64,000 bases of DNA from an uncultured Gammaproteobacteria bacterium (GTDB lineage Bacteria > Patescibacteriota > Patescibacteriia > UBA2169), in assembly GCA_964611875.1 (NCBI GenBank), contig CAZTBF010000002.1, forward strand, positions 184,439-248,438, read 5' to 3'. Position 1 is the stretch's first letter; each line of letters begins with the position of its first letter. A program made the position numbers and the translations under genes. Shown here in pieces: positions 2,980 through 55,903 of this stretch. The notes below the pieces were generated by a model. That model had not been told where the DNA came from. It did not search any database and worked only from the letters and a program-made list of their open reading frames with translations.

Positions 2980-3155
2980 TATATATTGTGGTATGTACTA
3001 GTATACTCCTGTGTATTTTTTTTTGCAAAATGATAGGTGGGTGGATAACTTTATTCTTGGTATATTTATTGACAAAAAGAAAATATTTATGATATTATAT
3101 TTTGTTCTTTATAATAATGTTTCAAAATTCACACTTACACGAAATGAGGTTATAG

Positions 3156-3758
3156 ATGAATTCTTCAGATCCTTCGTTTAAGAAACGTGTTATTCGTTTG
3201 GCTGAAGAGGGTGTTAATCCTGGTGTTATCAAGTGGCAAAGAGAAATGTCAATTCATTTTGTAGATTGTGCTGATGGTACTGTTGGTCAGTGGGAGGCCT
3301 TTCATGCCCCGACATTTGTGAAAACGGTATCTGTTGCAGCATTTACCTCTGAAGGAAAAATGATATTAGTTCGAATGTTTCGATTTCCTGTCAGATCTTG
3401 GTGTATTGATTTACCTGGTGGGGACAATAAAGAAGGTGAATCTCTTAAAGATGCTGTAATGCGCGAACTACTTGAAGAGACTGGATATGCAACGGATGGT
3501 CCTGTAGATATTTTATCAAGCGGATACATTAGTACTGCGCATACGAACGTGCCTCATCTCATTTTTTATGCTTCCAATTGTTTTATTGCCCAAGAACCTG
3601 TCCGAGATGCTATGGAGGTTGCCTCGGGTATGGAAGTTGTGCTTATGAGTCCTACTCAAATAATGAGGAATATTGCAAATCTAAAGAACACATATGGTTA
3701 TGGCCTTTCTCGTGCACTTTTACTTCTTTCGTATGGTGGTACGGTGAAATTTGAGTAG
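3156..3758 (+). CDS. NUDIX hydrolase
   Basis: Nudix box GDNKEGESLKDAVMRELLEETGY (Gx5Ex7REUxEExGU). Confidence 0.85.
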   Translation: MNSSDPSFKKRVIRLAEEGVNPGVIKWQREMSIHFVDCADGTVGQWEAFHAPTFVKTVSVAAFTSEGKMILVRMFRFPVRSWCIDLPGGDNKEGESLKDAVMRELLEETGYATDGPVDILSSGYISTAHTNVPHLIFYASNCFIAQEPVRDAMEVASGMEVVLMSPTQIMRNIANLKNTYGYGLSRALLLLSYGGTVKFE

Positions 3759-5695: not shown

Positions 5696-7021
5696 GTGTC
5701 TTCTCCGCTACGCTACGAAGATAAATTTAAAAATATGATCAAACAACAAATTAAGTCAATAAGAGTAAAAGAATTATGTTTGTGGACTGAAAATCCCAGA
5801 GATCCAATGGATCCAAAAGATACAGATTACAATATAATCAAGAAAGCTATTGCAGATGAAAGATCAAAATGGAATTTGCAAAAAATAGTTGCAGAAATGG
5901 GTACTCATTACGACCTGAGCGAGCTACCAACTGTCGTAAAACTAGATAAAAAATTTATAGTATTTGATGGAAACCGCAGAATTGCGGTGCTGAAATATTT
6001 ACAAGATGAAGAGTTGTATGGAAAATTGGGTGGCGGACTTTTTTTTAAAGAAGAGCCAAAAGAATTAAGAGAACAGTTGGAAGTTCCATGTAATTTATGC
6101 ACGAAGGAAGTTGCCCTTACTAACATTGAAAGGAAGCATGTTAATAATGGTTCATGGGGTCCTCTAGAAAGAGAATATTTTTTACATATTCACAGAGGTC
6201 ACAAAAAAAGTTTATTTTTAAAATTCGAAGAACAAACAGGTGGCGCAATAAGTAATCACCCAAAAATGAATCAGAGGGTAGTGAAAGAAGAATTGTTGAC
6301 TAAGAAAAACTTAGAGGAAATAGGAATAAGCTTCAATGAAGACGAAAAGCTTGTCTCGAACATTTCAAACAGCGACACAAAAAAAGTAATAGATAACATC
6401 ATATCCACTGTTGAAGACTCAAAAGCATTAACTAGAGGTGCAAATCGTGGAAAATTAAAAGAAACCATTTTGCAAGAGCATCCAGAGATGAAAGACAAAT
6501 TGAAACCTTTTGACGACACAAAAAATAAGCACGTTATCAAAATAAATAGCAACATTGACAATGTTAAACCTCCAAGGAAAACACCAAAAACGAACAGTAA
6601 AAAAATACTGTTCGAGAGAACACTTGTCTTAAAGTCCGGAGATGTTAATAATCTTTACGGTGCAATTTTAAACGTTTATAATAAACATAAAGATGATAAA
6701 GACGTATGGCCAATAATAGGCATGTCACTACGATTATTGCTTGATGTGGCAGCACGATCTCATTATGAAGAAATTCCTGGAGCAACAAAACAAGACAAAG
6801 ATGCAATATATAAAGATTTTCTAAAAAAAGCAAAAAAACAAATGACGGACAAAAAAAATATTAACTATCTATCACTCACAAATGATTGGCTATCAGACAA
6901 ACACTCAATGGATGGCATGTTGGCAAAATATGCTCACGGAAATATAACAACCAATCTGAGTGATATTTTATCTAACTCTTATATCATTTCAGACATTTTA
7001 GAATTCTACTTTAAAAAATAA
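5696..7021 (+). CDS. ParB/Srx-fold N-terminal domain protein with Lys-rich middle and helical C-terminal region (function unknown)
   Basis: GTG start 10 nt after GGAGG. ENPRDPMD and FIVFDGNRRIAVLKYL match ParB-like nuclease/NTPase domain motifs. The gene is very AT-rich. Confidence 0.7.
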   Translation: MSSPLRYEDKFKNMIKQQIKSIRVKELCLWTENPRDPMDPKDTDYNIIKKAIADERSKWNLQKIVAEMGTHYDLSELPTVVKLDKKFIVFDGNRRIAVLKYLQDEELYGKLGGGLFFKEEPKELREQLEVPCNLCTKEVALTNIERKHVNNGSWGPLEREYFLHIHRGHKKSLFLKFEEQTGGAISNHPKMNQRVVKEELLTKKNLEEIGISFNEDEKLVSNISNSDTKKVIDNIISTVEDSKALTRGANRGKLKETILQEHPEMKDKLKPFDDTKNKHVIKINSNIDNVKPPRKTPKTNSKKILFERTLVLKSGDVNNLYGAILNVYNKHKDDKDVWPIIGMSLRLLLDVAARSHYEEIPGATKQDKDAIYKDFLKKAKKQMTDKKNINYLSLTNDWLSDKHSMDGMLAKYAHGNITTNLSDILSNSYIISDILEFYFKK

Positions 7022-7024
7022 ATT

Positions 7025-7879
7025 ATGTTTTATTCCCCTTTACGGTATCCAGGTGGAAAAAATAAACTAGCAAAATTTATTGCCAAAATTTGTGTAAATA
7101 ACGAGATTGACGGACACTACGTTGAACCATATGCAGGTGGTGCTTCTGTTGCTCTTTATTTATTAATCGAACAAAAAGTTAAAAAAATTACCATCAATGA
7201 TTATGATCGATCGATTTATGCTTTTTGGCATTCAGTAGTAAAAAATACGAATAAACTTTGTCGTTTAATTTCAGAAACCGAAGTCAATACTGAAAATTGG
7301 TTAAAAGCAACTGAAATACAAAAAAACAAATCAAAAGCAAATCTTTTGGATCTAGGTTTTTCTACCCTCTTTCTCAACAGAACTAACATATCTGGAATAA
7401 TTAATGCTGGCATAATCGGTGGGATCAATCAAAAAGGTAAGTATAAAATGGATTGCCGTTTTAATAAAAATGAACTTATCAAAAGAATTAAATTAATATC
7501 AAAACACAAAAAACAGATTGAACTCTATAATCTCGATGCACTTGATCTAGTAAAAAAAATACAAAAAGAATCAAACAATAAAAAAACAATTTTTTATTTT
7601 GACCCTCCATACTACCTAAAAGGGTCGTCTTTGTATATGAACTATTACAATGACACTCAGCACAAAAAAGTTGCCAGCACTATTAAAGGCATAAAAAAAA
7701 TTAATTGGATAGTTTCATACGACAATACTCCACAAATAGAATCCATCTACAAATGGGTTTCCAAAAAAAGAATAAAAAAATATACATTCAACCACTCAGC
7801 ATACCGGGCAAGAGAGGGAAAAGAGATATTATTTTTTAGCAAAAATTTACTGACACCAAAAGCTGTTTTTAATATATAA
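7025..7879 (+). CDS. D12-class (Dam-like) N6-adenine DNA methyltransferase
   Basis: Motifs SPLRYPGGKNKL, EPYAGGASV and YFDPPYY. The ATG lies 3 nt after the upstream stop. Confidence 0.85.
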   Translation: MFYSPLRYPGGKNKLAKFIAKICVNNEIDGHYVEPYAGGASVALYLLIEQKVKKITINDYDRSIYAFWHSVVKNTNKLCRLISETEVNTENWLKATEIQKNKSKANLLDLGFSTLFLNRTNISGIINAGIIGGINQKGKYKMDCRFNKNELIKRIKLISKHKKQIELYNLDALDLVKKIQKESNNKKTIFYFDPPYYLKGSSLYMNYYNDTQHKKVASTIKGIKKINWIVSYDNTPQIESIYKWVSKKRIKKYTFNHSAYRAREGKEILFFSKNLLTPKAVFNI

Positions 7880-14515: not shown

Positions 14516-14545
14516 AAAAATCCGCCTTATCGGCGGAATTTTTGT
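14516..14545. terminator. Bidirectional terminator (TCCGCC..GGCGGA)
   Basis: A-run, stem and T-run. It lies immediately 3' of tRNA-His on the minus strand. Confidence 0.65.
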
Positions 14546-14546
14546 A

Positions 14547-14621
14547 TGGGGCGACTAGAGGGAATTGAACCCTCGTTAACGGGACCACAACCCGCTGTTC
14601 TACCATTGAACTATAGCCGCC
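14547..14621 (-). tRNA. tRNA-His (GTG) with encoded G-1 and CCA
   Basis: Hand-folded cloverleaf with acceptor GCGGCTA/TAGTCGC, an extra 5' G, anticodon loop TTGTGGT and T-loop TTCAATT. Confidence 0.9.
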
Positions 14622-14795
14622 GCGTCAAAGTCGGAACTTCGTGCTGCGCGTATCCCGTGAGTACACGGTATCCGCTTCGCACTACGTCCGCCTTTTCCTT
14701 TCAAATTTCTGCTTAACTTCGGAGTACCTCAGCCCAAGCAGAAATTTGTAACAAACATTTCACTTAACCTTCGCTACGCTACGGCCCAAGTGAAA
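14622..14795 (-). promoter_or_regulatory. tRNA 5' leader module (divergent body) with two CTTGGGC..GTTAAG hairpins
   Basis: Hairpins at 14703-14747 and 14758-14795 match those at 52167, 52464 and 55785. It ends in TTTGACGC next to tRNA position -1. Confidence 0.6.
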
Positions 14796-14855: not shown

Positions 14856-14927
14856 TGCCCCCATCAGGAATCGAACCTAAATCTAGGGATTAGAAGTCCC
14901 TCGTTCTATCCATTGAACTATAGGGGC
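14856..14927 (-). tRNA. tRNA-Arg (TCT), no encoded CCA
   Basis: Hand-folded cloverleaf with acceptor GCCCCTA/TGGGGGC, anticodon loop CTTCTAA and T-loop TTCGATT. Confidence 0.9.
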
Positions 14928-15009
14928 TTAAGCCAACATACATGTTCGATTCGGAAGCATGACACGTCTGAATGTACCACGAACATTGTGTGAAAGTCAA
15001 TAACCAACA

Positions 15010-27889: not shown

Positions 27890-27957
27890 GTGGCGTATCT
27901 AGTAATAGTAGTATAACGTATTTTTGAGGTTTATGTTACATGAAAAACTGATATTTG

Positions 27958-27986
27958 TTGATTTTTTAGCCGAAAAAGCGTATGAT
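27958..27986 (+). promoter_or_regulatory. Sigma70-like promoter of leuS (TTGATT-17-TATGAT)
   Basis: The -10 ends 12 nt before the ATG at 27999 with no SD. This argues against the ORF-track TTG start at 27924. Confidence 0.55.
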
Positions 27987-27998
27987 ATGGGCATTACT

Positions 27999-30900
27999 AT
28001 GAGTTACGACCACAAAGCAATTGAGGCAAAATGGCAAAAACGCTGGAAAGATGAGCGTGTGTTTGAAGTGGATAATACCGTTGATGCTGAAAAGAAAAAG
28101 TACATTTTAGACATGTTTCCGTATCCTTCTGGTGCGGGGTTACACGTTGGGCACCCTGAAGGCTATACTGCAACGGATATTTACTCTCGATATCTACGTA
28201 TGAAGGGTTTTTCTGTGTTGCACCCAATGGGGTGGGATGCTTTTGGCTTGCCTGCAGAAAATTATGCAATTAAATCTGGCGTGCATCCTAAAGAAAGTAC
28301 TGAAAAAAATATAGAAACCTTTACCCGACAAATTCAATCTCTTGGATTTAGTTATGATTGGTCTCGTGAGGTAAATACATCCTCTCCAGAATATTATAGA
28401 TGGACGCAGTGGATTTTCTTACAACTCTACAAAGCAGGATTAGCATATAAAAAGGAAGCACCCGTAAACTGGTGTGATGACTGCCAAACCGTTCTTGCAA
28501 ATGAACAGGTGGTAGATGGAAAATGTGAACGTTGTGGACACGAGGTGATTCAAAAAAATCTTGCTCAGTGGTTTTTTAAGATTACGGGGAATAGTTCTGA
28601 GTTCGAAGGCGATAGTTCAAAGAAAACTAACTATGTTATTTTGCATGGTTATACAGGATCTCCTGATAGTGATTTTCATCCATGGTTAAAATCTGAATTG
28701 GAAGCACGTGGATATTCCGTGCAAGTTCCACTTTTACCGAATACAGATAACCCTACAGTTATGGAACAAGTTTCGTATGTTCTTGAAAACTGTACCTTTG
28801 ATGAGCATACTATTGTATTAGGACATAGTTTGGGGGCAGTTGTTGCACTTAAAGTGTTAGAAACACTTAATAAGCCAATTCAAAAATTAGTATTAGCAGC
28901 TGGATTTATAGAAGCAGAATTTTTAGATAAAGAACGCCCGTTTAAAGATACCTTTGATTGGAGTTTTGATTTTGAACGTATAAAAAAGAATGTCTCTTCA
29001 TATGTATATCTACAAGCTCAAAATGATACAGCTGTGCCAGCACAGCAAGCAGTAGCAATGCAAAAAGAATTGGGAGGTGGTATTGTATCATTTGTTGCAG
29101 AAGATGATCATATTTGTGGTGGTCAAGAACCGACAGTGCTTGAGCATGTGCTCGCAGAGGCTTCAAGTTATCCAGAGCGTTTACTCAATAATTTAGATAC
29201 GCTCGATTGGCCAGATCCTATTAAGCACATGCAACGAAACTGGATCGGAAAAAGCGATGGAGCGGAATTAGAATTTAAAATTTCAAATTCTGAATTTAAA
29301 ATTTCTGTTTTTACTACGCGTCCAGATACGTTATTTGGTGCAACGTACATGGTACTCGCACCAGAGCATGAGCTTGTACAGAAATTGAAAGAAACTATCA
29401 AAAACTGGGGTGCTGTTGAGGACTATATAAAGGAGGCACAATCAAAAAGCCAACTTGAGCGTACAGATCTCGCAAAAGAAAAAACAGGCGTGCCATTAGA
29501 AGGTGTTACCGCAGTAAACCCAGCTACAGGTGAAACTATTCCTGTATGGATTGCGGATTATGTATTAGCTTCGTATGGTACGGGTGCAATTATGGCAGTT
29601 CCTGCACATGATGAACGTGATTTTGCATTTGCTACCAAATATAACTTGCCGATTAAAAATGTTATTGAGCCAGATTTAGGGTATTGGAAATCAGATATAA
29701 GTAGTATTGAAAAAGAGATGCAAGAAGATTTGAATTCTTCTAAAACTCCTGAAAATGAAGCTAAGTGGCAAGAAAAACAAGACAAGGAATTTGAATCATA
29801 TTGTAAAGATGTTAAAGAAGGAAAAATTGTTTATCCTGGACCAGGTAAAATTCTTAACTCTGACATATATGAAGGTTTGTATTCAACAGAAAAGGATGCC
29901 ATTTTTCAAAAACTAAAAGAAAATAGTTTAGGTCATAGTGCTGTTCAACATAAACTCAGAGATTGGCTCATTAGCAGACAACGCTACTGGGGAACACCAA
30001 TTCCTATTGTGTATGATCCAGAAGGGAACCCACATCCAGTGAAAGAGGAACATCTTCCATTAGAACTTCCAACGGATGTTGATTTTAAACCAAAAGGAAC
30101 TTCTCCACTTGGTAGTTCTGAAAGCTACAAAGCATTAGCAGAAAAACTCTACGGAAAAGGTTGGTATTTTGAAATTGATACCATGGATACCTTTGTTGAT
30201 TCATCATGGTACTTTTTGCGATATACAGATGCACATAATGACAAAGTATTTGCATCGCCAGAAGCATTGCAAGCATGGTTGCCAGTAGACACCTACGTTG
30301 GTGGTGCAGAACATGCGGTATTGCATCTTATGTATGCACGATTTTTCTGCATGGCATTACACGATCTTGGGCATCTTTCTTTTGAGGAACCATTTATCAA
30401 ACTCCGCAATCAAGGACTTATCATGGGGCCAGACGGGCAAAAAATGTCTAAGTCACGAGGGAATGTCATTAATCCAGATGAAGTGATTGAAAATCTTGGA
30501 GCAGATACCATGCGTTTGTATGAAATGTTTATGGGGCCCTTGGAAGAATCAAAGCCATGGAGTACGGACGGTATTATTGGAGTGCGTAGATTTATAGAAC
30601 GCGTGTGGCATGCCGAGCAGTTTGTGGTAGAAACTATTGAAGACAAGAAACAATCACAGGATATAGACAGAGGATTACATCAGCTTATTAAGAAAGTACA
30701 AGAAGATATAGAATCTTTTGGTTTCAATACCGCTATTTCACAAGGAATGATTTTTATCAATATGGTGTATAAAGCAGGAGCTATTACTCAAGCACAATGG
30801 GATGTATTTCTCACTGTATTACATCCCTTTGCTCCGCATATCACTAATGAACTATGGGAAAAACGAGGACATACTACCTTGCTTGAAAAAGAGGATTGGC

Positions 30901-31121
30901 CAACATACGATGAATCATTGCTCGTAGAGGATGAAGTGACATACGTGATTCAGGTAAATGGAAAAGTACGTGCCAATATTGTTGCAGCAGCAAATGCTTC
31001 AGAATCAGATATTGTTGCACAAGCGCAAGCAGAAGAAAACGTACAACATCAATTACAAGATAAAAAAATCGTAAAACAGATTTTTGTACCAGGGAAACTG
31101 TTGAATTTTGTAGTGAAGTAG
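27999..31121 (+). CDS. leuS: Leucyl-tRNA synthetase carrying an inserted alpha/beta serine hydrolase domain
   Basis: HVGHP, KMSKS, Zn module CDDC..CERC, CP1 editing domain (TTRPDTLFGATY..AHDERD), and the C-terminal anticodon-binding and tRNA-binding regions. Confidence 0.9.
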   Translation: MSYDHKAIEAKWQKRWKDERVFEVDNTVDAEKKKYILDMFPYPSGAGLHVGHPEGYTATDIYSRYLRMKGFSVLHPMGWDAFGLPAENYAIKSGVHPKESTEKNIETFTRQIQSLGFSYDWSREVNTSSPEYYRWTQWIFLQLYKAGLAYKKEAPVNWCDDCQTVLANEQVVDGKCERCGHEVIQKNLAQWFFKITGNSSEFEGDSSKKTNYVILHGYTGSPDSDFHPWLKSELEARGYSVQVPLLPNTDNPTVMEQVSYVLENCTFDEHTIVLGHSLGAVVALKVLETLNKPIQKLVLAAGFIEAEFLDKERPFKDTFDWSFDFERIKKNVSSYVYLQAQNDTAVPAQQAVAMQKELGGGIVSFVAEDDHICGGQEPTVLEHVLAEASSYPERLLNNLDTLDWPDPIKHMQRNWIGKSDGAELEFKISNSEFKISVFTTRPDTLFGATYMVLAPEHELVQKLKETIKNWGAVEDYIKEAQSKSQLERTDLAKEKTGVPLEGVTAVNPATGETIPVWIADYVLASYGTGAIMAVPAHDERDFAFATKYNLPIKNVIEPDLGYWKSDISSIEKEMQEDLNSSKTPENEAKWQEKQDKEFESYCKDVKEGKIVYPGPGKILNSDIYEGLYSTEKDAIFQKLKENSLGHSAVQHKLRDWLISRQRYWGTPIPIVYDPEGNPHPVKEEHLPLELPTDVDFKPKGTSPLGSSESYKALAEKLYGKGWYFEIDTMDTFVDSSWYFLRYTDAHNDKVFASPEALQAWLPVDTYVGGAEHAVLHLMYARFFCMALHDLGHLSFEEPFIKLRNQGLIMGPDGQKMSKSRGNVINPDEVIENLGADTMRLYEMFMGPLEESKPWSTDGIIGVRRFIERVWHAEQFVVETIEDKKQSQDIDRGLHQLIKKVQEDIESFGFNTAISQGMIFINMVYKAGAITQAQWDVFLTVLHPFAPHITNELWEKRGHTTLLEKEDWPTYDESLLVEDEVTYVIQVNGKVRANIVAAANASESDIVAQAQAEENVQHQLQDKKIVKQIFVPGKLLNFVVK
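28587..29168 (+). other. In-frame ~194-codon YdeN/RBBP9-type serine hydrolase domain inserted in LeuRS
   Basis: NYVILHGYTGSPDSDFHPWLK, GHSLG nucleophile elbow, QNDTAVP (Asp) and EDDHI (His). Flanked by LeuRS motifs QWFFKIT and YPERLLNNLDTLDWPD. Confidence 0.75.
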
Positions 31122-34559: not shown

Positions 34560-37500
34560 ATGAAAAAATCAAAACAAACAAGACATAAAAATCGCATAGG
34601 TATAGGTATTGTTTCAGCATGTCTTGCTTTTTTTGTTTTTGCACAACCTGCACACGCTATTCTTGGTATTGGAGACATTAGCATTACGGCAGGTGACATC
34701 CCTCGTACTATTGAAAAAATTGTAGGGAACATTGTACAGAAGTTTGGATCACGTGCTTTTTATCAAGCATTGAGAAGTGTGACCTATCAATTAGCACAAG
34801 ATACTGCAGTATGGGTTGCCTCAGGGGATAGAGGGAAAAAACCGTTAATTTTTACTGATTTTAAAAAAGGACTCTCAAGTGTGGGTGATGAAGTTGCTGG
34901 AAAGTTTTTGGTAAACCTTTCAAGCTTTGATGGAGGGATCCCTGTTAATTTGTGTAGCTCAGAAAGTTTAAAGAAACGAAGTGCTTTGGTTATTGGAGTT
35001 TCAAAATCGGTTCGTGATTTTGATATTTTTGCAGACACACAATTTGCAGACATAAACAATGATATTGGGCAACGAGGTTGTAGCTTATCAAAAATTAGTG
35101 ACAATGTTACTGAAGCAGCAAAATACTATAAAGAGAGTGCTGAGGCAACCGCACAGAGTTTGAAAAATTTACAAAGTGGTTTTGATACGGGTAAAACCGA
35201 TATTAGTACGTTTTTAGTGTTGCAAGAATATGCATCAAAAGAAAAAGCTGATACAAAATTACAAGTACAACTTGATGCAAGTAAGGGAGTTGTTGAGGGC
35301 AAGGATGCTGTTGGAAATGTCAAAAATGCTGCTGAAGACGTAAAACGTGTCCAAGATCAAATTACCGAAAAAGCAATTAATCCAAATCCTGCACAGGTGA
35401 CTGGAGACATTTTTGTTGATGCATTTCAAATATTTACTAACACTCTTGCACAAACATATTTACAACGTTTGAGTAGTGGATTTTACCCTCTGAGAAAAAC
35501 AGCTTCTCCAGATAGCTTTGTGTCACGTATTGGGGGAGAAGGATCAAGTTCTCGTCGAGCACTGCTTGCAAGTTTTAGTGAATTTTCTCCAGAGAATGTG
35601 TTGGATGTTGGTTCTCCTGGTGAAATTGATTTATTTAGTGAAATGGCATCATGTCCCCCGGGCAATTTGCAATCACCATATCATTGTTTACTGAGTAGAG
35701 GATTACAACAAGCAGTACAAGAAGGTATTACAGTACGACAAGCACTTGAAAGAGGATTGCTTGATCCAAATATGCTGTTCCCGCAAGAGCATGATAACAC
35801 CCAACCAGTGCTTTCTATAGAAAACATTAGAAAGCTTCGCTTTTTGCGAGTAGTGCCTCTTGGTTGGGAAATAGCAGCAGAACGTGCGTATGAGCGTGGA
35901 CAGGTTCGTTTAGGTACGGTGGTGCAGTGTTTTGAAGATAGTCAAAGTCCAAATGACCCACAAGCCCCTGCTTCCTGTGTAACCAGTACGCAAAATCCTG
36001 ATGCAGAAAATCCTTACTACCATTTAATTGATCCAACGTGGTTGCTTGATATCCCACAGCAGTTTTGTCGAGCACAAGGGTATGGCAATATTCCAGAACA
36101 TGAACGCTCTCCAAACAGAACACAGGCTTGTGTTGATTTACAAAGTTGTATTGAAACCGATGCTCAAGGAAATTGTGTTGCCTATGGGTATTGTACTCGT
36201 GAAAGAAACACGTGGCAGTTATCTGGTGAACAGTGTGAAGAACAGTACGCAACCTGTACCACATTTACCGCTTCAGATAATAGTACGCTTTCATTGCTCA
36301 CTAATTCATTAAATACAGAAGGATGTACTCTCCAAAATGCTGCTGGATGCCAATGGTATAGCCGGTTACGTAATCCGAATGAATCAGCTTCAGACAGAAG
36401 TGATGATTGGTATGATTTCCCATCGAATCGTATTTATCTCAATAGTCGTTCACAAAGCTGTGGCGTAAATCAAAAAGGATCAGAAGAAATTATTCCCTTT
36501 ACTCAAGGAATAAATTTAGTAAAGAATGGTGATTTTAGTGAAGATCTTTTTACGAAACGTGTCCCTGCTTCTGAAAATACTGTTGCATACCCAACCTATG
36601 ATGATGGGGGGTGGAAATTTACTGCTCTGAATAATAGTGGGCGTACCATTGATAGTGGTACCGATCCTTTTTATTTGTATCATGATACTCGATATGGTTT
36701 AGAAGCAATTAAGCCTGATCTTGCTGAACAAATTGTTCATTTAAAACCACGTACGTACTATACCCTTTCGTTTGATGTGCAATCATTAGATGAAAATACT
36801 GTTGCTGATGTGCGCGTTCAAATGGCACGATTAGAACAAATACGAAATGTATCCTTTCAAGGAGTAGCAGGAAGTGATACTGCGTATGATACCAGTATCG
36901 AGTCAACGACTTTAGCATTACGTATTGCGAACGTTCCTTCTAGTGAACCTGTTCGGTATGCTGCAACATTTTATAATACAGCACGAAGTGTAAGTACCGT
37001 TAATATTGAACTACGTGGAAATCTTTTATATGACAACATACAACTTGAGCCAATTAGTTTAGCAGAAGGAATTCGTGCAAAAGATCAGGTTGATGCATTT
37101 CTCCAAACAACCACAGGTGCTGTTGCTTCATTAGAGGCAAAGCAAGAATATGTAAACACGGTGCCATCAAATGCAAAAAACATTGCATCTCCAACCACAC
37201 CATATGGGTCATATAATGATAATCAAAAAAATAAACGAGTAGTATTTGCAGAGGCTGACAGTTGTACTGATGTTGAAGCAAGTGCGGTACGGTATACTCG
37301 TGCACGAGATGGGAAACAAACTATTGCACGTCTGACACCAAATGGCTTGTGTGCACAACAATGTAATGGCATGAATCAGTTTCTTGCCATACCAACACCT
37401 ATAGAAAAACTGGTAGATCAAAGTGCGGTTGCACATCGTGCATATTTTATTCCTTCACGCGCACAGTCTTGTCAGGCTCAAGATGTGGGGTGTGAGGTAT

Positions 37501-40500
37501 TTACCAATACGTCGAGTGGTACTGAACAGCGAGAGTATTACAGTAAAATAGAATCATGTGTTGCGGACACAAACCCGAATACCGCAACATTCTTTACTTG
37601 GGAAGGAACTGATACTGCAGGATTTCAATTGCGTGCGTGGCAATTTTTGGCAGAAGAACCTGAATCAAGTACTGATACACAATTGGGTCCGTGTGCTGCA
37701 TTCCCACAAGGGTTACGGCAGCAAGGGGGCATTTCTCCTGAAAATGCACAATGTCAGGGAGTGCAAGTATGTAGCCTAAATCCTGCTGATGAAAATTATA
37801 GTTCGACTTGTCGAACCTATTTAGATGTGAACGGTGTTGAATATACCCGAGACAGCACACGTTTAGTTACAGCATCAAACGAGTGTACTACATACCGACG
37901 AACGAACACGGTTAATGGGGTACAAGAACAATGGTATTTTATTCCAAATGAAGCAAATACTTGTAGACCTACTGCCATTGGGTGTCGTGAATATAAAGGA
38001 GCATTAGGAAATGTGACACAGACTATTTTTAACACTACTTTTGAAAACAATGTCACTGATCAATGGAGTAATGGAACCTTATCACCAGAAGCTATTGTTG
38101 CAGGAGAATCCTCTCTCCGCATTAGTGGGGGGACTGATGTTTCTCGTCCTGTTACCCTTGTAAACCCTGTTGGGAAATCATATCTGTTACGGTTTAATGC
38201 AAAAGCAGAGAATACAAATGGAGTATTAAATCTTATTCGTTTTGGTGTTACCGCTAATGGCACACAGCTCGATAGGTCTTTCATTGATGCTTCGACCGAT
38301 GCTCCTCTTGCACTCACAACAGATTGGCGTTCATATACTGTGGGGCCAGTACTGTATGAATCATTAGGTGGGGAATATGATACACAAAATCCACGAATAA
38401 TAATTCGTGCCCAAAATGGAAATGTCTTTATTGATGATATTGAGTTGGTTGAAGTACAAGATAGATTTTATGTGACCGATCAATCTACTCGAGCACAAGA
38501 AAATGGAGGAACCCAACCAAATGGTTGTTATACACAAAATTCAAATTACACCAATCCCGTATATGCCCGATGTGAAGCCTATACCGATAGCGCACGTAAC
38601 ACCTATTTTGTTGAAACATTTGATCAACTGTTCTCAGAAGAAGCATTGAGCTGTACCGCGGCAATTGTAACGAATAATTACACATATCCGTATAGTGAGC
38701 GATTCTTCCAAAAGAATAGTGTTGCTGCAGCTCCAGAGCTTCCAATAGATGTTCGTGCCGATAGGCTTGAGTATCGTAGATTGGTTGCACAAAATGTGGT
38801 GGTACCACAGGCTGCTGGTTGTACAGAGGTCGGATTACAAAAAACTGATTTGAGTGGTACGTATTGGCAAACAACGTATCGTACCATTGATCCCGATACT
38901 TTTGGACAGACATTGTGCCAAGATGCAAGTGTTGGGTGTGGTTCGTTTACCACAACCGAAGGGGCACAATATACTTTTAGAGATCCTCGTCAAAATGGAA
39001 ACATGTGTGAATGGAGTGCAGAAGCTCGTGGTGGTTTAGGTGGATGGGTTAAACAAGGAAGCGATGACCCGTGTGAAACTAATGATGCTCGCACCTGTCC
39101 TTCGGATCAAAATGCATGTACTGCGTATGCCGCATATAATGACGCAGCAAACATTGGATTAAGTGATACTCTCTTTTATCGTTCAAACACATTAACGAGT
39201 GGAGATTGTCAAAGTGAAGATATTGGTCTTGGTTGTGTGAGTTTCGTAGAACGATATGCAGATGACGGAGCACTCAAGGGTTCGGTATTGCCTGGGCAAG
39301 AACCCGGTATTCGAGTGTTGCAGGGAACACAACAACGACAATGTACTGAATGGCTTGCTCCAACAACAACTTCAACTATAGATGATCCTCGTACCAGAAG
39401 TAAGCGTGTGGTGAGTTATGATATTGGGCGATGTCAAAAATTAAGTCCAACAGGTGAATGTGTTACCTGGGTAGAACCTCTTGATGGAAGTGGGGTATAT
39501 CCTGCTGCGTATCTTGCAGATGATAACCAAACACCAACACGATTTTCTGTGAGCGCATACCAAAACAGATACACGTCAGTGACCGGCAACCCACAAACAC
39601 TGTTTAGTGGTGCATGGGAATATACTGGATATTCTTCTGCTGAACAATATCCAGCAGATGTGTTACAACAGTTTAATGGAGATAACCCAGTACTTGGTGT
39701 TTCTCGTGGAGGAACCTATCGTTGTCCTGCAGGGCAATGTAATGCAACAACACTCTATGCAACAGGATCTTCCTTTGGAACGGCTAATTTAGTTGGTATG
39801 TATGCGGTAATTGAAGATACTGACCTTGCTGGTGAAATACGTGAAATTGTTGGTAATAATCCAGGGCAACTCTTTATTTCTCCTGATTTTCCATTTTCTA
39901 CCGATCCTGAAGGTGCTGCTTTCCGTATTGTTGATGGTTCTGCTATTGAGTGTCGTGCTTACCCAGAAGAAGATGCGCCATTTGACCGTGGAGGTATTCG
40001 AGAGAGAGCAGCGTATACTGATATAGTTGATTTTACCGGTAATGCTGCATTACAAAACCTTACCTTATGTGAAGAAAGTGGTAAGGCATGTAGCTGTTCA
40101 TATAAAAAAGTCCAAACAGATACTGAAACCGTATACCTGAGCAAACAAACAACAAAACAACTTCCAGAGGATACACGTTCAGTAACCGATTTTGATGGAT
40201 GGCAAGGATATTGTTATGAATATGATTATGAGACTTTGGATCCAAATGGTAATCCTGTGTGTTTATCGTGGTGGCCTGTTGATGTTCCTGTTGGGGTAAC
40301 TAATATTTTTGATAATCACCCAAGTGCTGGGTTTGTTTCAAGTCAGCCATTATACTATTGTTTGGATGCTCAAAGTAATTTAAGGCAATCAATTCCAAAC
40401 GTTACTTTTGTTGAAGCAAAGAATAACACGTATGTGCTGGCACTTGAAAATGCAACTGGAAATTCAGTTGATGCTTTTAAAGCACACTTTAATACTGGTA

Positions 40501-43500
40501 CTGGATGGGTGCGACGCGATGCCACGAACCCAAAAGATGGGTATCATTTATTGCAACGTTTAGCAGATACCGATGGCCCTGAAAATGCATCAGGTATTAT
40601 GCAATTTAGTGTAAAACCTGATTCATTCTTTAGTACCTTAAAGGAATATGATATTGATTCAATTGTTTTGAAAGTTCGTAATAGTGAACATCAACGAGAA
40701 TGGCCAGGAGCTGGTGAAGAATTTGCGCTTTCTCGAAAAGGCCTTGCTATGAGCTTATTGACCAATCCTGAAATTGCAGATGAAAATAGGTGGACGGTTT
40801 TATGGTGTGGAGGAAAAGAAGATGCAAAATGTAGTTTTGGTGACGTGTATAGTTGGGATAAATTTAAACCATTTCTTGAACACACCAATGAAATTGTTGC
40901 ACCAAATGCAGAACATCCTGCAGATAACGATTTATGTTGGGGGCAAGCAGAAGTAAATGGTCAAAATATTTCTATAGATGCGAATGGTGGAACAAATATT
41001 TTTGGTATTCGAGCTATCTTTACAGATGAAAATGGTAATGCACCAGCTGGTTCAACGTATGCAACTGTTACTACTCAAGAACCACACTCATTCCTTGGAT
41101 TTGAAGGAGGGTTATGTGACAATACTGGTAGCGGTGGTTGGGTTGATTTTGAAGTTGTTTTTAAAGTACGTGAATGGTGTTCTGCTGTAGCTCAAGTAGA
41201 TACAAGTGGACAAAATGAAGCATGGAGTGGACGATTAGGAGGAAAAGCACAAGTTGCTTCTGGACTCTGTACACTTGAACCAGGGAATGAACGAGCTGCA
41301 TTTTGTTATAGTAATGCAGATTGTGCAGGGGAGAGAACCTGCCAATTGCATTTTGAAGTAGCCGATACTACTGGATTTATGAGTGGTGTCTATCAGGATC
41401 CGACCCAGAGATTCACTTTACAAACGGATGCTCAGCCATTTGGATCTATTGTTCCTCCAACAGATACCTTATTTGATCCAACACAATGGGATTCTCGTGA
41501 TGATACCTATCTTTTTGAACGCCTCGAGAATGGTTCACTTGTACAGGAAGAGCGTACTCTTGAGCCAGGGAAGCAACCTATTTACGTGGAGATTCCACAA
41601 GGGCAAGTACGTGCGGGCACACCCCTTGCATGTACTCGAGGTGCTGAGTGTTTATTACCTCCACATACTAATACTTCTGCTCAATCAGATGCCTTTACTG
41701 GCCTCTCAGGTGGTATTACTGCATTACGTAATTTGTTTACTCGCATTTTTGGTATTTGGATATTTAATCCAGAAACCGTAACCTACGAAGAACGCACCTC
41801 TGAACAGTTAGATATTGGTTTTGATTATTCGCAAGATGCCTCAGATGCTGGTCAATGTCCGGTGATACAAGATATTGAAAAAACAGCAACAGGTGATGCT
41901 ATTGTGTTTGATCCAACAACAGCGAATCCACAAAATTGGAATCCTATTGCAGATAGCTCAGGAAGAATAGCTGGGCGTAATTGTCCTTCCCCATCAGATG
42001 ATGTTGCACGTGCTGGTCGATACTCAATCAACGGACAAGCAGTTCCTCATCTTGCTGGTGTGGTGCAACAGAAACAACAAGTGCAAGTAGGGGAAGAAGT
42101 AAAATTGCAATTTTATGCATTTAATTATAATGGTGAGCAATTACCATTACGTACGATTACTATTGATTGGGGTGATGCTGGTGCCCCAACAATTATTACA
42201 GGTAATTTTAAGAATCATCGACCTGATTGTTCAAACCTTGGTGCAAATTATGGACAAACAGATCGAGCCTGTGATAGCAATTATTTTGAATTTAGACACG
42301 TATACCGAACATTAGGAAATAAATGGCCAATCGTTACTATTGAGGACAATTGGGGTAAACGTACGGTTGCACAGTATGCAGAAACTGGCGAACCAGTATT
42401 AGAAATTTATGATCAGTCTCGTGATATCCCATTAGAGTTTATTAACGTTGCACAACCAAGTGATGCTGCAGAGTTTCAGTGGGTTGCAACACCAAACAAA
42501 CTGGTGGTGAATTCGTTTAGAGTTGTAGTTACAACTATTGGTCAAAATGGAGACGTTTCAACGCAACCTTCTCAAACTGTTTCTGTTTCTGGTGGTGGTG
42601 ATGCAGCATATGAAGGGAACATACGTATTTCTAAAAATACTGACACCTCTATTATTACGATTACAGTACAAGGGTGTAATAATGAAAATCCAGAGCAACC
42701 AGTATGTGGTGCACTCTATAGAAAAAGCGAAGGAAACCCTCCTCGTATTGTCGATAACTTTCGTGTAGATAGTGGTATCGAAACGACCATTAACAAAGCA
42801 CAAGGTTCTGTGGTCACTGCAACATGGGACAGTTTGCCAGAGGCAGAATATTATCAAGTTGAAGTTTCTAAAGATAATGGAACATATGTTGCTGTGCGAC
42901 GTGAGGTGCGTAGCTATGCTGTGGTATATGAGCAACATACAAAAACGACCGATATTCGCATTCGTGCATGTAATGCTGTTGGCTGTGGTGCTCCTACTTC
43001 GATTAAGCGAGTATGGTATACCCCTACTGCGGTAACTGGTTTTGGACATACCCCGACACAACCATATCAAAATACACAAGTTACCGTAACCTGGAGCCAA
43101 AATGTGATTGCAGATCAATACATTGTATCGTATGGATATAATAACAGATCAAAAGTTGAACAATCAGTATCTACTCCGTATTTCACGTTACCTGTACAAT
43201 TTGGGGCAACAAATGCACAAGTGAGGGTGAGTGCTTGTAATACCAACACAACACATTGTGGAAGTGCCTCAAACGAATACACTATACCGTATACGTCCCC
43301 GCAGACAGATTGGCGGATTGCTTTTAGTGCTATTGGTGATCCTGCTGGCACCACCGGATGTGAAAGTCAGTACGGGCAAAACCATATTTGTAGTGCGAGT
43401 GAATTTAACAGTTATGCATTTAATCCTGTTGCATCTATTGATCGATCTACATTGCATATATTTGATACTGACTTACAACAGCGCATTGGACAAAAAGATT

Positions 43501-43754
43501 TTGCAGGGATTAAAGCAACAAAGGAGTACGTGGTAACACAAAATGGAACATATACTTTTTCTATATCAAGTGATGATGGTTCTGAATTTTGGGTGCGAAG
43601 ACAAGGACAACAATTGTTGCATCTAGACAATGGTGGTGACCATGGTACCACAGGGAAACAAGGTGCGGTAACACTTACTCCTGGCACCTATCAGTTGGAA
43701 TTTATTGGTTGGAATAACGATGGTGGTTCTGAATTCCATGTAAATCTTCCATAA
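34560..43754 (+). CDS. Giant (3064 aa) Cys-rich secreted/surface protein with lectin/CBM-like modules, FN3-like modules and C-terminal PA14 domain
   Basis: Signal/anchor IGIVSACLAFFVFAQPAHA. NGDFSE..YDNIQLEP spans ~36515-37055 and a second module ends in IDDIELVEV at ~38035-38460. FN3-like units are at ~42738-43300. PA14-like GTYTFSISSDDGSEFWV..GTYQLEFIGWNNDGGSEF spans ~43300-43751. Confidence 0.9.
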   Translation: MKKSKQTRHKNRIGIGIVSACLAFFVFAQPAHAILGIGDISITAGDIPRTIEKIVGNIVQKFGSRAFYQALRSVTYQLAQDTAVWVASGDRGKKPLIFTDFKKGLSSVGDEVAGKFLVNLSSFDGGIPVNLCSSESLKKRSALVIGVSKSVRDFDIFADTQFADINNDIGQRGCSLSKISDNVTEAAKYYKESAEATAQSLKNLQSGFDTGKTDISTFLVLQEYASKEKADTKLQVQLDASKGVVEGKDAVGNVKNAAEDVKRVQDQITEKAINPNPAQVTGDIFVDAFQIFTNTLAQTYLQRLSSGFYPLRKTASPDSFVSRIGGEGSSSRRALLASFSEFSPENVLDVGSPGEIDLFSEMASCPPGNLQSPYHCLLSRGLQQAVQEGITVRQALERGLLDPNMLFPQEHDNTQPVLSIENIRKLRFLRVVPLGWEIAAERAYERGQVRLGTVVQCFEDSQSPNDPQAPASCVTSTQNPDAENPYYHLIDPTWLLDIPQQFCRAQGYGNIPEHERSPNRTQACVDLQSCIETDAQGNCVAYGYCTRERNTWQLSGEQCEEQYATCTTFTASDNSTLSLLTNSLNTEGCTLQNAAGCQWYSRLRNPNESASDRSDDWYDFPSNRIYLNSRSQSCGVNQKGSEEIIPFTQGINLVKNGDFSEDLFTKRVPASENTVAYPTYDDGGWKFTALNNSGRTIDSGTDPFYLYHDTRYGLEAIKPDLAEQIVHLKPRTYYTLSFDVQSLDENTVADVRVQMARLEQIRNVSFQGVAGSDTAYDTSIESTTLALRIANVPSSEPVRYAATFYNTARSVSTVNIELRGNLLYDNIQLEPISLAEGIRAKDQVDAFLQTTTGAVASLEAKQEYVNTVPSNAKNIASPTTPYGSYNDNQKNKRVVFAEADSCTDVEASAVRYTRARDGKQTIARLTPNGLCAQQCNGMNQFLAIPTPIEKLVDQSAVAHRAYFIPSRAQSCQAQDVGCEVFTNTSSGTEQREYYSKIESCVADTNPNTATFFTWEGTDTAGFQLRAWQFLAEEPESSTDTQLGPCAAFPQGLRQQGGISPENAQCQGVQVCSLNPADENYSSTCRTYLDVNGVEYTRDSTRLVTASNECTTYRRTNTVNGVQEQWYFIPNEANTCRPTAIGCREYKGALGNVTQTIFNTTFENNVTDQWSNGTLSPEAIVAGESSLRISGGTDVSRPVTLVNPVGKSYLLRFNAKAENTNGVLNLIRFGVTANGTQLDRSFIDASTDAPLALTTDWRSYTVGPVLYESLGGEYDTQNPRIIIRAQNGNVFIDDIELVEVQDRFYVTDQSTRAQENGGTQPNGCYTQNSNYTNPVYARCEAYTDSARNTYFVETFDQLFSEEALSCTAAIVTNNYTYPYSERFFQKNSVAAAPELPIDVRADRLEYRRLVAQNVVVPQAAGCTEVGLQKTDLSGTYWQTTYRTIDPDTFGQTLCQDASVGCGSFTTTEGAQYTFRDPRQNGNMCEWSAEARGGLGGWVKQGSDDPCETNDARTCPSDQNACTAYAAYNDAANIGLSDTLFYRSNTLTSGDCQSEDIGLGCVSFVERYADDGALKGSVLPGQEPGIRVLQGTQQRQCTEWLAPTTTSTIDDPRTRSKRVVSYDIGRCQKLSPTGECVTWVEPLDGSGVYPAAYLADDNQTPTRFSVSAYQNRYTSVTGNPQTLFSGAWEYTGYSSAEQYPADVLQQFNGDNPVLGVSRGGTYRCPAGQCNATTLYATGSSFGTANLVGMYAVIEDTDLAGEIREIVGNNPGQLFISPDFPFSTDPEGAAFRIVDGSAIECRAYPEEDAPFDRGGIRERAAYTDIVDFTGNAALQNLTLCEESGKACSCSYKKVQTDTETVYLSKQTTKQLPEDTRSVTDFDGWQGYCYEYDYETLDPNGNPVCLSWWPVDVPVGVTNIFDNHPSAGFVSSQPLYYCLDAQSNLRQSIPNVTFVEAKNNTYVLALENATGNSVDAFKAHFNTGTGWVRRDATNPKDGYHLLQRLADTDGPENASGIMQFSVKPDSFFSTLKEYDIDSIVLKVRNSEHQREWPGAGEEFALSRKGLAMSLLTNPEIADENRWTVLWCGGKEDAKCSFGDVYSWDKFKPFLEHTNEIVAPNAEHPADNDLCWGQAEVNGQNISIDANGGTNIFGIRAIFTDENGNAPAGSTYATVTTQEPHSFLGFEGGLCDNTGSGGWVDFEVVFKVREWCSAVAQVDTSGQNEAWSGRLGGKAQVASGLCTLEPGNERAAFCYSNADCAGERTCQLHFEVADTTGFMSGVYQDPTQRFTLQTDAQPFGSIVPPTDTLFDPTQWDSRDDTYLFERLENGSLVQEERTLEPGKQPIYVEIPQGQVRAGTPLACTRGAECLLPPHTNTSAQSDAFTGLSGGITALRNLFTRIFGIWIFNPETVTYEERTSEQLDIGFDYSQDASDAGQCPVIQDIEKTATGDAIVFDPTTANPQNWNPIADSSGRIAGRNCPSPSDDVARAGRYSINGQAVPHLAGVVQQKQQVQVGEEVKLQFYAFNYNGEQLPLRTITIDWGDAGAPTIITGNFKNHRPDCSNLGANYGQTDRACDSNYFEFRHVYRTLGNKWPIVTIEDNWGKRTVAQYAETGEPVLEIYDQSRDIPLEFINVAQPSDAAEFQWVATPNKLVVNSFRVVVTTIGQNGDVSTQPSQTVSVSGGGDAAYEGNIRISKNTDTSIITITVQGCNNENPEQPVCGALYRKSEGNPPRIVDNFRVDSGIETTINKAQGSVVTATWDSLPEAEYYQVEVSKDNGTYVAVRREVRSYAVVYEQHTKTTDIRIRACNAVGCGAPTSIKRVWYTPTAVTGFGHTPTQPYQNTQVTVTWSQNVIADQYIVSYGYNNRSKVEQSVSTPYFTLPVQFGATNAQVRVSACNTNTTHCGSASNEYTIPYTSPQTDWRIAFSAIGDPAGTTGCESQYGQNHICSASEFNSYAFNPVASIDRSTLHIFDTDLQQRIGQKDFAGIKATKEYVVTQNGTYTFSISSDDGSEFWVRRQGQQLLHLDNGGDHGTTGKQGAVTLTPGTYQLEFIGWNNDGGSEFHVNLP

Positions 43755-52097: not shown

Positions 52098-52166
52098 GGA
52101 TATAGTATAGCAAAAAGGGTTGAATAAATGAATAAAATATGATATACAATAATAGTTCTACATAGA

Positions 52167-52283
52167 CTTTACCGCTTGCTCCGAGGTTAAGTGGTAAAGT
52201 GAAAGGAGTATGCGTATGAAGGGTGTAGTGGATTCTGTAGCGTAGCGAAAGAATACACGGAACCCGTAATGCGATTACGACGC
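52167..52283 (+). promoter_or_regulatory. Conserved tRNA 5' leader module, copy 1
   Basis: Hairpin CTTTACC..GGTAAAG around CTTG..CTCCGAGGTTAAG, followed by an ~80-nt block shared with 52505-52589 and 55699-55784. A TTGAAT-17-TATACA promoter lies at 52120-52148. Confidence 0.6.
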
Positions 52284-52360
52284 GCCGGGGTAGCTCAGTT
52301 GGTTAGAGCGGAGGACTCATAAGCCTCAGGTCGACGGTTCGATCCCGTCCTCCGGCACCA
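52284..52360 (+). tRNA. tRNA with CAT anticodon (elongator Met or Ile2), CCA encoded
   Basis: Hand-folded with acceptor GCCGGGG/CTCCGGC, anticodon loop CTCATAA, T-loop TTCGATC and a C11-G24 elongator-type pair. Confidence 0.85.
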
Positions 52361-52463
52361 AACCCGCCTTTGGCGGGAAACATCAAACACCAAACATCAA
52401 TAACCAATAAATTGACGTTTGCACTATAGTCTGTTAGCATAGCAACCAATGCCTTATTAATCA

Positions 52464-52589
52464 TTTTGTACTTGGGCCAAGGTACTCCGAGGTTAAGTAC
52501 AAAATGAAGAGGAATAGGCGCATGAAGGGTGGAGTGGTTTCCTAAGCGTAGCGTAGGAAAACACGGAACCCGCAATGCGACTATGACGC
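52464..52589 (+). promoter_or_regulatory. Conserved tRNA 5' leader module, copy 2
   Basis: Hairpin TTTTGTACTTGGGCCAAGGTACTCCGAGGTTAAGTACAAAA plus the conserved block. A possible TTGACG-17-TAGCAT promoter lies at 52412-52440. Confidence 0.6.
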
Positions 52590-52664
52590 CGCGGGGTAGA
52601 GCAATGGCAGCTCGCCAGGCCCATAACCTGGAGGTTGCGGGTTCAAGTCCCGCCCCCGCTACCA
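52590..52664 (+). tRNA. tRNA-Met (CAT), initiator-like, CCA encoded
   Basis: Hand-folded with a C1xU72 mismatch, A11-U24 pair, anticodon loop CCCATAA and T-loop TTCAAGT. Confidence 0.8.
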
Positions 52665-52668
52665 AAAA

Positions 52669-54325: not shown

Positions 54326-54362
54326 AAAAATAGGGGACGGTTTCAAACCGCCCCCTATTTTT
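54326..54362. terminator. Bidirectional terminator (ATAGGGGACGGTTT..AAACCGCCCCCTAT)
   Basis: A-run, 14-bp stem and T-run between convergent genes. Confidence 0.75.
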
Positions 54363-55613: not shown

Positions 55614-55698
55614 TGGTGCCGGAGGAGAGACTCGAACTCTCACACCTTGCGGTACACGATTTTGAGTCGTGCGTGTATACCAGTTTCACCACTCCGGC
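55614..55698 (-). tRNA. tRNA-Leu (CAA), long variable arm, CCA encoded
   Basis: Hand-folded at 85 nt with acceptor GCCGGAG/CTCCGGC, anticodon loop CTCAAAA and T-loop TTCGAGT. Confidence 0.9.
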
Positions 55699-55829
55699 GC
55701 GGCGTCGTAGTCGCATTGCGGGTTCCGTGTATTCCTTCACTACGTTACGGAATCCACTCCACCCTGCATGCGCCTACTCCTTTCAATTTTTTACTTAACT
55801 CGCGAGTACACGAGCCCAAGTAAAAAATT
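55699..55829 (-). promoter_or_regulatory. Conserved tRNA 5' leader module, copy 3
   Basis: Minus-strand AATTTTTTACTTGGGCTCGTGTACTCGCGAGTTAAGTAAAAAATT hairpin plus the conserved ~85-nt block ending in TACGACGCCGC. Confidence 0.6.
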
Positions 55830-55874
55830 AGTAAAAACAGGATAACATGGCTATTCTAAACTAATCATAGTGCA

Positions 55875-55903
55875 TTGTCAAAGGTGGATAATTTCATTAT
55901 AAT
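55875..55903 (+). promoter_or_regulatory. Sigma70-like promoter of parA (TTGTCA-17-TATAAT)
   Basis: The -10 ends 8 nt before the ATG at 55912, so the mRNA is effectively leaderless. Confidence 0.6.

Follow-up and report, generated by a model that had tools for sequence, protein, structure and literature searches.

We analyzed a 64-kb stretch of contig CAZTBF010000002.1 (GC content ~40%; the whole of this stretch is henceforth termed the window), in which a structured module of 117–128 nt lies directly 5' of four tRNA genes, viz., those for tRNA-Met, tRNA-fMet, tRNA-Leu, and tRNA-His; we label these copies M1 (Met), M2 (fMet), M3 (Leu), and M4 (His). The window is cellular rather than viral DNA, and its gene content includes NrdD, PNPase, LeuRS, GuaA/GuaB, TopA, ParA/ParB, RelA/SpoT, and XerD. 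The best named homologs of its XerD, which are 61–71% identical, come from Komeili-, Sung-, Uhr-, and Jacksonbacteria, with further best homologs in metagenome-assembled genomes (MAGs) of the 'Parcubacteria/Patescibacteria group', and a neighboring hypothetical protein has a distant match in Candidatus Buchananbacteria. Since the homologs of both XerD and this neighboring protein come from such groups, the host is a Parcubacteria-type bacterium of the candidate phyla radiation (CPR), whose closest database relatives show ~75% identity in XerD and ~55% in the fast-evolving neighboring hypothetical protein.

Both ARAGORN and Rfam call five tRNAs in the window, namely His, Arg, Met (CAU), initiator Met, and Leu (CAA), and four of these five genes carry the module. 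Each module is comprised of two hairpins, H1 and then a rod (the body of the module), joined by a 3–4-nt hinge, UGAR. When searched with filters off, using a covariance model of the body (R1), the window yields exactly four matches of 86–93 bits, all abutting tRNAs on the tRNA sense strand; the reverse strands of the four module sites score 8–18 bits, and no other site in the window scores above 17 bits. These matches bear out the initial annotation, which had recognized a structured leader at the same four tRNA genes and none at tRNA-Arg, and whose coordinates and sequences all proved correct when checked against the window. The motif pair CTTGGGC..GTTAAG occurs four times in the window versus 0.02 occurrences expected by chance.

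On the plus strand, M1 opens with a shortened H1 (52167..52199, from sequence and minimum free energy [MFE] fold), followed by a rod that extends from AGGA at 52204–52207 to GACG at 52279–52282 and ends with one further nucleotide, a C (52204..52283 overall; R1 match at 52199–52283, 86.2 bits; fold z-score -4.9). It abuts position +1, at 52284, of tRNA-Met (CAU), a gene with an encoded CCA (52284..52360). Directly 3' of this tRNA is a hairpin without a U-run, CCCGCCTTTGGCGGG (52361–52385), and after it a 14-nt tandem repeat, ACATCAAACACCAA / ACATCAATAACCAA, situated upstream of a promoter-like TTGACG-17-TAGCAT with a TG (52412..52440), a candidate by consensus match that would feed M2 and tRNA-fMet. 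M2 combines an H1 (52464..52504), delineated by sequence, fold, pair counts, and an inverted repeat (I2), with a rod from AGGA at 52510–52513 to GACG plus a C (52510..52589; 90.5 bits with R1, and present in the folds) that abuts position +1 of the initiator tRNA-Met at 52590. The latter gene (52590..52664; C1.A72) is followed by a terminator hairpin in the transcript fold. A 120-aa open reading frame (ORF) with a TTG start (52303–52665, minus strand), almost certainly spurious, runs antisense over tRNA-fMet, M2, and part of tRNA-Met; similar ORFs are called over tRNAs of a relative (L002).

On the minus strand, a promoter-like TTGACA-17-TAGAAT (55853..55881; 11/12 match to the consensus) would feed M3 and tRNA-Leu, and two relatives (L002 and L003) have promoters at the equivalent position. 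M3 consists of an H1 (55785..55829; sequence, fold, pair counts, and an inverted repeat, I1) and a rod from AGGA at 55781–55778 to GACG at 55706–55703 with a C at 55702 (55702..55781; 93.3 bits with R1; fold z-score -7.05), after which three additional nucleotides (CGC, 55701–55699) precede position +1 of tRNA-Leu (CAA; 55614..55698) at 55698. Also on this strand, a promoter-like TTGACT-18-TACATT (14971..15000, again a consensus match) lies 5' of tRNA-Arg (UCU; 14856..14927), which has no module of its own in the covariance-model scan; this site probably drives a unit consisting of tRNA-Arg, M4, and tRNA-His. M4 possesses an extra hairpin, H1a (14758..14795; sequence, edge-motif count, and pair counts), which may be a remnant of an older unit, followed by H1b (14703..14747; the same evidence and the fold) and a rod from AGGA at 14699–14696 to GACG at 14626–14623 with a C at 14622 (14622..14699; 92.5 bits with R1; fold z-score -6.2). 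The rod abuts the encoded G-1 (14621) of tRNA-His (GUG; 14547..14621, with 14547–14620 called by ARAGORN), behind which is a terminator at 14521–14537.

After GACG there is thus a single nucleotide to position +1 in M1 and M2 and to G-1 in M4, and three more in M3. Stated for GACGC, with which all four modules had been annotated to end near the tRNA, the gap is 0 nt to +1 for Met and fMet, 0 nt to G-1 for His, and 3 nt for Leu. The sigma-70-like sites of M2 and M3 are located ~23 nt upstream of H1 by consensus match. At the window loci we found no terminator between module and tRNA, and terminators were found 3' of the tRNAs. The predicted M2 transcript resolves into independent domains, viz., a 5' tail, H1, the rod, the cloverleaf, and the terminator. 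We infer that the module lies between promoter and tRNA and would be transcribed together with the latter. The idea that the promoter was duplicated along with the module was rejected, as the similarity between the M2 and M3 promoters is not significant (20/300 shuffles as high).

A two-hairpin fold with compensatory changes

The fold was derived by hand and checked by eight single-sequence MFE folds, RNAalifold, and pair counting, using 10 intact rods and 11 H1 hairpins from about five organisms, plus a few degenerate copies. The base of H1 is a 7–11-bp A/U-rich stem with the consensus AAAUUUNNN paired with NNNAAAUUU, above which come CUU/AAG pairs, two G.U pairs, one bulged G, and then CC/GG pairs. 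Its upper part is a variable inner stem, often with tandem purine mismatches, capped by a loop that is usually UACU. The conserved CTTGGGC/GTTAAG edges had at first been assigned to the loop; in the fold they are paired instead, contributing the CUU/AAG and the two G.U pairs with the bulged G. In the basal stem, 105/110 cells are paired, with 3–4 Watson-Crick pair types at three positions.

The rod consists of a single long, irregular helix that starts with AGGA and ends with GACG. At its base AGGA stands opposite GACG (A.G, G-C, G.A, A.G), followed by three variable pairs, a G-C, and a single G.A; the middle has five pairs, a symmetric 3x3 loop GNA/GNA, GGGU/ACCC, and a second GNA/GNA loop; and the top has GYG/CRC, a G/A opposition, and a variable apical hairpin tipped by GUAGC-GUA-GCGAA, UACU, or UUCG. 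As AGGA and the terminal GACG form the rod base, only 1 nt remains between the structure and the tRNA. The inner-stem and CGCAT/ATGCG pairings proposed earlier are real by both RNAalifold and pair counts, and belong to this one longer covarying helix. Contrary to the earlier claim of a different body for the tRNA-His copy, M4 adopts the same fold, matches R1 as noted above, and displays compensatory changes in its rod (GGGU/ACCC to GUGC/GCAC, and GUG/CAC to GCG/CGC). With regard to the tips, GUAGCGUAGCGAA caps H1a of M4 (14758–14795) and, exactly, the rod of M1 (52236–52248 region), with the close variants UAAGCGUAGCGUA in M2 (52540–52552) and GUAACGUAGUGAA in M3; the UACU tip is likewise found on both hairpin types. 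Tips therefore seem exchangeable between the H1 and rod hairpins.

Across the 21 Watson-Crick pairs of the rod, 96.1% of the cells are paired versus 32–43% when the partners are slid by 1–3 columns, though these cells are not phylogenetically independent counts. Nine of the 21 pairs are altered on both sides, confirming the compensatory changes originally noticed, and column shuffles reached the observed covariation score or percentage of paired cells in 0/500 cases. RNAalifold independently returned the same structure, and all eight single-sequence folds share the architecture, with z-scores of -3.4 to -7.05. The ten purine-purine oppositions of the rod are identical in 9–10 of the 10 copies, and the module alignment contains six G.U pairs versus two A.C. 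Across all copies, R1 scores 86–101 bits on the tRNA sense strand and at most 30 bits on the antisense strand. We consider it established that the module is a sense-strand, RNA-type structure under selection, and the compensated substitutions between resident copies argue for this selection being a continuing one.

The module belongs to no known RNA family. With Rfam 15 (4227 models) at the gathering threshold, the window returned the five tRNAs only, and scans of all module regions and four related loci at E<=10 gave nothing credible on any copy, in line with the failure of the initial annotation to recognize a known family. A single RNaseP_nuc match (13.8 bits, E 0.07) in one scan was not reproduced in the next. 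A full-text literature search found no description of such an element, and neither ARAGORN nor Rfam RF00005 detects a tRNA or tRNA-like cloverleaf on the modules.

Several specific identities were rejected. A miniature or cis-acting RNase P RNA was suggested by the short resemblances AAGGGUGAA and ACACGGAACCC, which have no support from the RNase P models, and other tRNAs of the same genomes occur without the module. A leader peptide would start from AAGGAG and an ATG, giving a 7–9-codon ORF in M1–M3; the ATG is absent in M4 and in two copies from elsewhere (L007 and L037), and the substitutions track base pairing, not codons. The AGGAG run that might act as an anti-Shine-Dalgarno sponge lies opposite GACG at the rod base, and is hence not single-stranded. 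Inspection further set aside a kink-turn, as the required 3-nt bulge is missing beside the tandem G.A of the rod base and the internal loops are symmetrical (3x3 GNA/GNA); an integron attC site, for which GTTAAGY resembles GTTRRRY, yet the partner strand is not complementary; and an archaeal bulge-helix-bulge, an 11-nt tetraloop receptor, and an H/ACA-like layout, all of which misfit in geometry.

Distribution, gain, and decay at tRNA genes

We scanned GTDB species genomes and JGI metagenomes with patterns limited to the positions shared by the two most divergent window copies, and recovered further copies directly 5' of tRNAs, together with chance matches in GC-rich coding DNA. One GTDB genome, the MAG NZBL01 ('bacterium ARS1386'; L007), carries the module 5' of tRNA-Ala (UGC), and in the metagenomes it was found on four distinct contigs, 5' of tRNA-Pro (CGG), Lys (CUU), Cys (GCA), and Ala (GGC). 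The scans of viral contigs found no copy, and a profile of reverse-frame translations, by which we searched via the spurious ORFs, retrieved no further ones. Every tRNA-proximal copy elsewhere ends in GACG[C/U/A] directly at tRNA position +1, and the gap between GACGN and position +1 or -1 is 0–3 nt in all nine tRNA-proximal copies. M4 is 78–82% identical to copies in other organisms, versus 63–70% to M1–M3. Given that the flanking protein genes are unrelated housekeeping genes that differ at every locus, the only constant neighbor is a tRNA, of any identity; an associated protein gene was accordingly discarded as a candidate. In the L007 MAG, the 23S (545–3354) and 5S (4398–4514) rRNA genes are ~1 kb apart, and a free-standing ORF between tRNA-Val and tRNA-Leu (6720–7330) is LAGLIDADG homing endonuclease-like by eye.

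Conserved synteny around the tRNAs in relatives permitted a site-by-site comparison. At the parA, tRNA-Leu locus, both L002 and L003 have the equivalent promoter and then a 16–19-nt leader with no module. The spacer from tRNA-Met to tRNA-fMet measures 0 nt in L003, 60 nt in L002, and 229 nt in the window, with the module present in the window only. At the xerD, tRNA-Arg, tRNA-His locus, the module-bearing spacer of the window is 235 nt long, and the module is absent from spacers of 68 nt (L075, L076), 37 nt (L083), and 5 nt (L084–L087). A 142-nt spacer at the same locus in a further relative (L077) houses a decayed relic, in which the tRNA-proximal strand ACGCGCAACCCGCA..GACUACGACGU is kept, abutting G-1, and the 5' strand is unpaired (5.9 bits). 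Since L085 is from the same MAG as L007, one genome combines a module at tRNA-Ala with an empty tRNA-His site. With orthologous sites being filled, empty, or occupied by a relic, the element is seen to be gained and lost at individual tRNA genes, and the relics and empty sites argue that it is dispensable. Within the relic-bearing spacer of L077, the 3' end of tRNA-Arg and its trailer (GGGGGTACCAGACT; 3920–3995) are duplicated ~60 nt downstream. Two other relatives, L080 (7157–8191) and L081 (6673–7413), have two tRNA-His genes, with a PQ-loop membrane-protein gene between tRNA-Arg and the first of them.

Some loci display more than one unit. In L048 and L067 a second unit lies upstream of the intact one, and the two loci have a common junction sequence despite their different tRNAs (Cys and Ala); of the two distal rods, that of L048 no longer has its AGGA/GACG base, and that of L067 is degenerate (37 bits). 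L037 has an upstream H1 and truncated rod, and M4 a lone extra H1 upstream. In all four of these cases, it is the unit in contact with the tRNA that is intact. This would result if insertion of new units at the tRNA junction displaced older ones upstream or, alternatively, if selection retained the adjacent unit only. Thus, the distribution of the module is patchy and dynamic, and its copies are confined to tRNA leaders and spacers in the sense orientation.

Candidate release by RNase P and alternative explanations

The three options first offered for the module were a shared processing or regulatory leader, a co-transcribed small RNA, and a tRNA-targeting repeat. The data favor the last two in combination, because relatives lack the module at the corresponding tRNA genes, and it is found at other tRNA genes elsewhere. 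Moreover, the tandem arrays, by keeping only the tRNA-proximal copy intact, point to the behavior of a spreading element, and the closed-ended fold favors a released small RNA. We propose, with a probability of about one half, that the module represents a previously undescribed, mobile-like family of transcribed leader RNAs of Parcubacteria (Patescibacteria/CPR) that is released by RNase P. In such a scheme, the tRNA promoter would transcribe a short 5' tail, the module, and the tRNA in turn; the module would fold autonomously into H1 and the GA-rich rod, with the last rod pair 1 nt from tRNA position +1; and the RNase P cut at this position, which is needed for tRNA maturation, would free an RNA of 120–140 nt. 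The module, which in 9/9 tRNA-proximal copies directly precedes an RNase P substrate, is probably cut off in this manner as a small RNA of its own during tRNA maturation. The freed RNA should resist exonucleases, because its 3' end would be recessed in the rod and its 5' side capped by H1. The ten purine-purine oppositions, together with the G.U/bulged-G motif, would be a likely recognition surface for a protein or a copying machinery, and protein binding as the function of the module is our guess. The element itself would be a mobile or duplicative passenger, found without exception in sense orientation at the tRNA 5' junction. The tRNA leader may constitute a safe harbor for it, as RNase P removes anything placed there, and it could be either of benefit to the host or a well-tolerated passenger.

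If a stable freed leader is indeed produced, it would represent a new bacterial route to a small RNA, one that borrows the promoter and RNase P site of a tRNA; the lineage is uncultured and genome-reduced, and almost no non-coding RNAs are, to our knowledge, known from it. In the rod, ten invariant G.A-type oppositions recur at regular spacing, an unusual architecture for an RNA and one for which a specific partner is to be expected. That the element is gained, lost, and stacked in tandem exactly at the tRNA 5' junction points toward a targeting principle undescribed for bacterial repeats. The element also lengthens leaders and spacers, and causes spurious ORF calls over tRNA loci in MAGs.

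A number of points weigh against this proposal. Transcription, RNase P cleavage, accumulation of a stable RNA, protein binding, and the mode of spread are all deduced from sequence, and the paired-cell counts come from 10 intact bodies in about five organisms. Because bacterial RNase P prefers a single-stranded leader, a precursor whose leader helix ends 1 nt short of the cut is a non-ideal substrate; the element might hence delay tRNA maturation instead of just riding along. Neither a partner protein nor an autonomous element with a mobilizing enzyme was found, and we know of no mechanism for insertion exactly at tRNA position +1. Finally, our census of the source genome is that of the 64-kb window, and orphan copies could exist elsewhere in it.

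The 1-nt spacing after the last rod pair, which is fixed in 8/9 tRNA-proximal copies, might also be understood if the module were a cis-acting maturation or expression element, active only while attached to the tRNA. In one version, the stable helix stacked 1 nt from the acceptor stem gates or times the RNase P cut, for instance until a protein or ligand opens the GA-rich base of the rod; in another, the module insulates the tRNA from misfolding with the neighboring transcript. Both accord with the decay of copies that lose tRNA adjacency, with the retention of exactly the tRNA-proximal strand in the L077 relic, and with the invariance of the weakest part of the rod (A.G, G-C, G.A, A.G), which adjoins the cleavage site. 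We nevertheless deem a cis role unlikely: the same tRNAs do without the module in related genomes, M3 carries three extra nucleotides before its tRNA, the module has neither an expression platform nor a link to tRNA identity, and H1 and the distal rod are conserved despite their distance from the cleavage site.

The manner in which a leader freed by RNase P might spread is more speculative. The freed leader could be an RNA-level 'homing' passenger, rejoined by ligation or by template switching of a reverse transcriptase to the 5' ends of other tRNAs and then copied into the genome. Such a process would explain the clean +1 junctions at nine unrelated tRNAs, the three extra nucleotides at one junction, and the position of the newest, intact array copy always beside the tRNA. 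While we view it as a long shot, it would, if true, define a new class of bacterial mobile elements whose target is a site of RNA processing instead of a DNA sequence.

More improbable yet is a DNA-level repeat, i.e., a miniature inverted-repeat transposable element (MITE), a repetitive extragenic palindromic (REP) sequence, or an IS200/IS605 derivative; a transposase or recombinase would then recognize the hairpins in the form of single-stranded or cruciform DNA, the RNA fold being incidental. The patchy, multi-copy occurrence with tandem and degenerate copies, the two subterminal hairpins, and the conserved right end GACG are all features that such a repeat would have, and in its size (~100–150 nt), hairpins, and capacity to decay the module does resemble REP/REPIN, ERIC, and Correia elements and the IS200/IS605-derived PATEs. 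It differs from them in having no terminal inverted repeats or target-site duplications: its inverted repeats are the two internal hairpins only, which are unlike each other in sequence and shape, and no direct repeats flank its boundaries. Further, every copy is in sense, inside what we take to be transcribed leaders, and exclusively at the tRNA 5' junction (as are all the window copies), the module's G.U pairs and its ten conserved G.A oppositions are features characteristic of RNA, the genes neighboring the copies include none for a transposase, and a DNA-sequence target cannot account for insertion at position +1 of nine different tRNAs.

A new self-cleaving or catalytic RNA, in which two helix-loop-helix domains would dock via their internal loops as in the hairpin ribozyme and cut at or near the tRNA junction or in the leader, could draw on the invariant non-canonical nucleotides in the internal loops of the two adjacent domains, their 3–4-nt hinge, and the existence of other tRNA-flanking ribozymes (theta; PMC10879173), but is highly improbable, as no known ribozyme family of Rfam 15 (hammerhead, HDV-like/theta, twister, twister-sister, pistol, hatchet, or hairpin) matches the module regions even at E<=10, the rod-like architecture contains neither a pseudoknot nor a multi-helix junction, a self-cleaved tRNA would start with a 5'-OH, and the 3-nt offset of the M3 junction means that RNase P would still be needed.

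A leader RNA released by RNase P finds its closest comparison in other RNAs linked to tRNA processing. MALAT1/mascRNA and MEN-beta are non-coding RNAs matured by RNase P, for which a downstream tRNA or tRNA-like structure is the 3'-end signal (see also PMC8457004). As in MALAT1/mascRNA, the module is directly 5' of a tRNA-shaped RNase P substrate and its cleaved 3' end would be sequestered at once. In contrast to that system, the signal would be a real, functional bacterial tRNA, protection would come from a GA-rich helix rather than a triple helix, and the module is multi-copy and moves between tRNA genes, its cleavage and stability being predictions. RNAs of the 3'ETS-leuZ type are single-locus, largely unstructured base-pairing sponges. 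Like 3'ETS-leuZ of E. coli, the module would be left over from the processing of a tRNA operon and may act in trans; it differs in its conserved two-hairpin fold, which has almost no single-stranded sequence and recurs at many tRNAs.

Two further systems share individual traits with the module. T-boxes are found 5' of mRNAs and comprise a specifier and a terminator/antiterminator. The module resembles T-box leaders in that its leader helix is long and irregular, with purine-rich internal loops that are conserved, and in its functional tie to tRNA; it has none of the T-box features just named, however, as the tRNA itself directly follows it with no terminator between, and it shows no match to the Rfam T-box model (RF00230). 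The theta ribozymes beside phage tRNAs (PMC10879173) are likewise small structured RNAs with a boundary at the tRNA end and an association with many tRNAs; they have the double-pseudoknot fold of hepatitis delta virus (HDV) ribozymes and process tRNA 3' ends. Unlike these, the module is 5' of the tRNA, lacks an HDV-like fold, and has no Rfam match.

Other features of the window

Apart from the module loci, the window shows three features that we record as observations in their own right. The leucyl-tRNA synthetase (27924–31121, plus strand; 1065 aa) has an alpha/beta-hydrolase domain (Ser_hydrolase/Abhydrolase_1) inserted at residues ~237–389, between the catalytic core and the editing domain. 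A single ORF of 3064 aa occupies 34560–43754 (plus strand), and proteins of 2773–3237 aa are encoded at the same place in syntenic relatives, one of which has a Big_7 domain; its product and these syntenic counterparts are probably giant surface proteins. Lastly, a 17-bp perfect hairpin flanked by A-runs and T-runs (54326–54362) separates convergent genes for an ABC-2 transporter and a Na+/H+ exchanger; it draws several weak matches to small-RNA families and is probably a bidirectional terminator.

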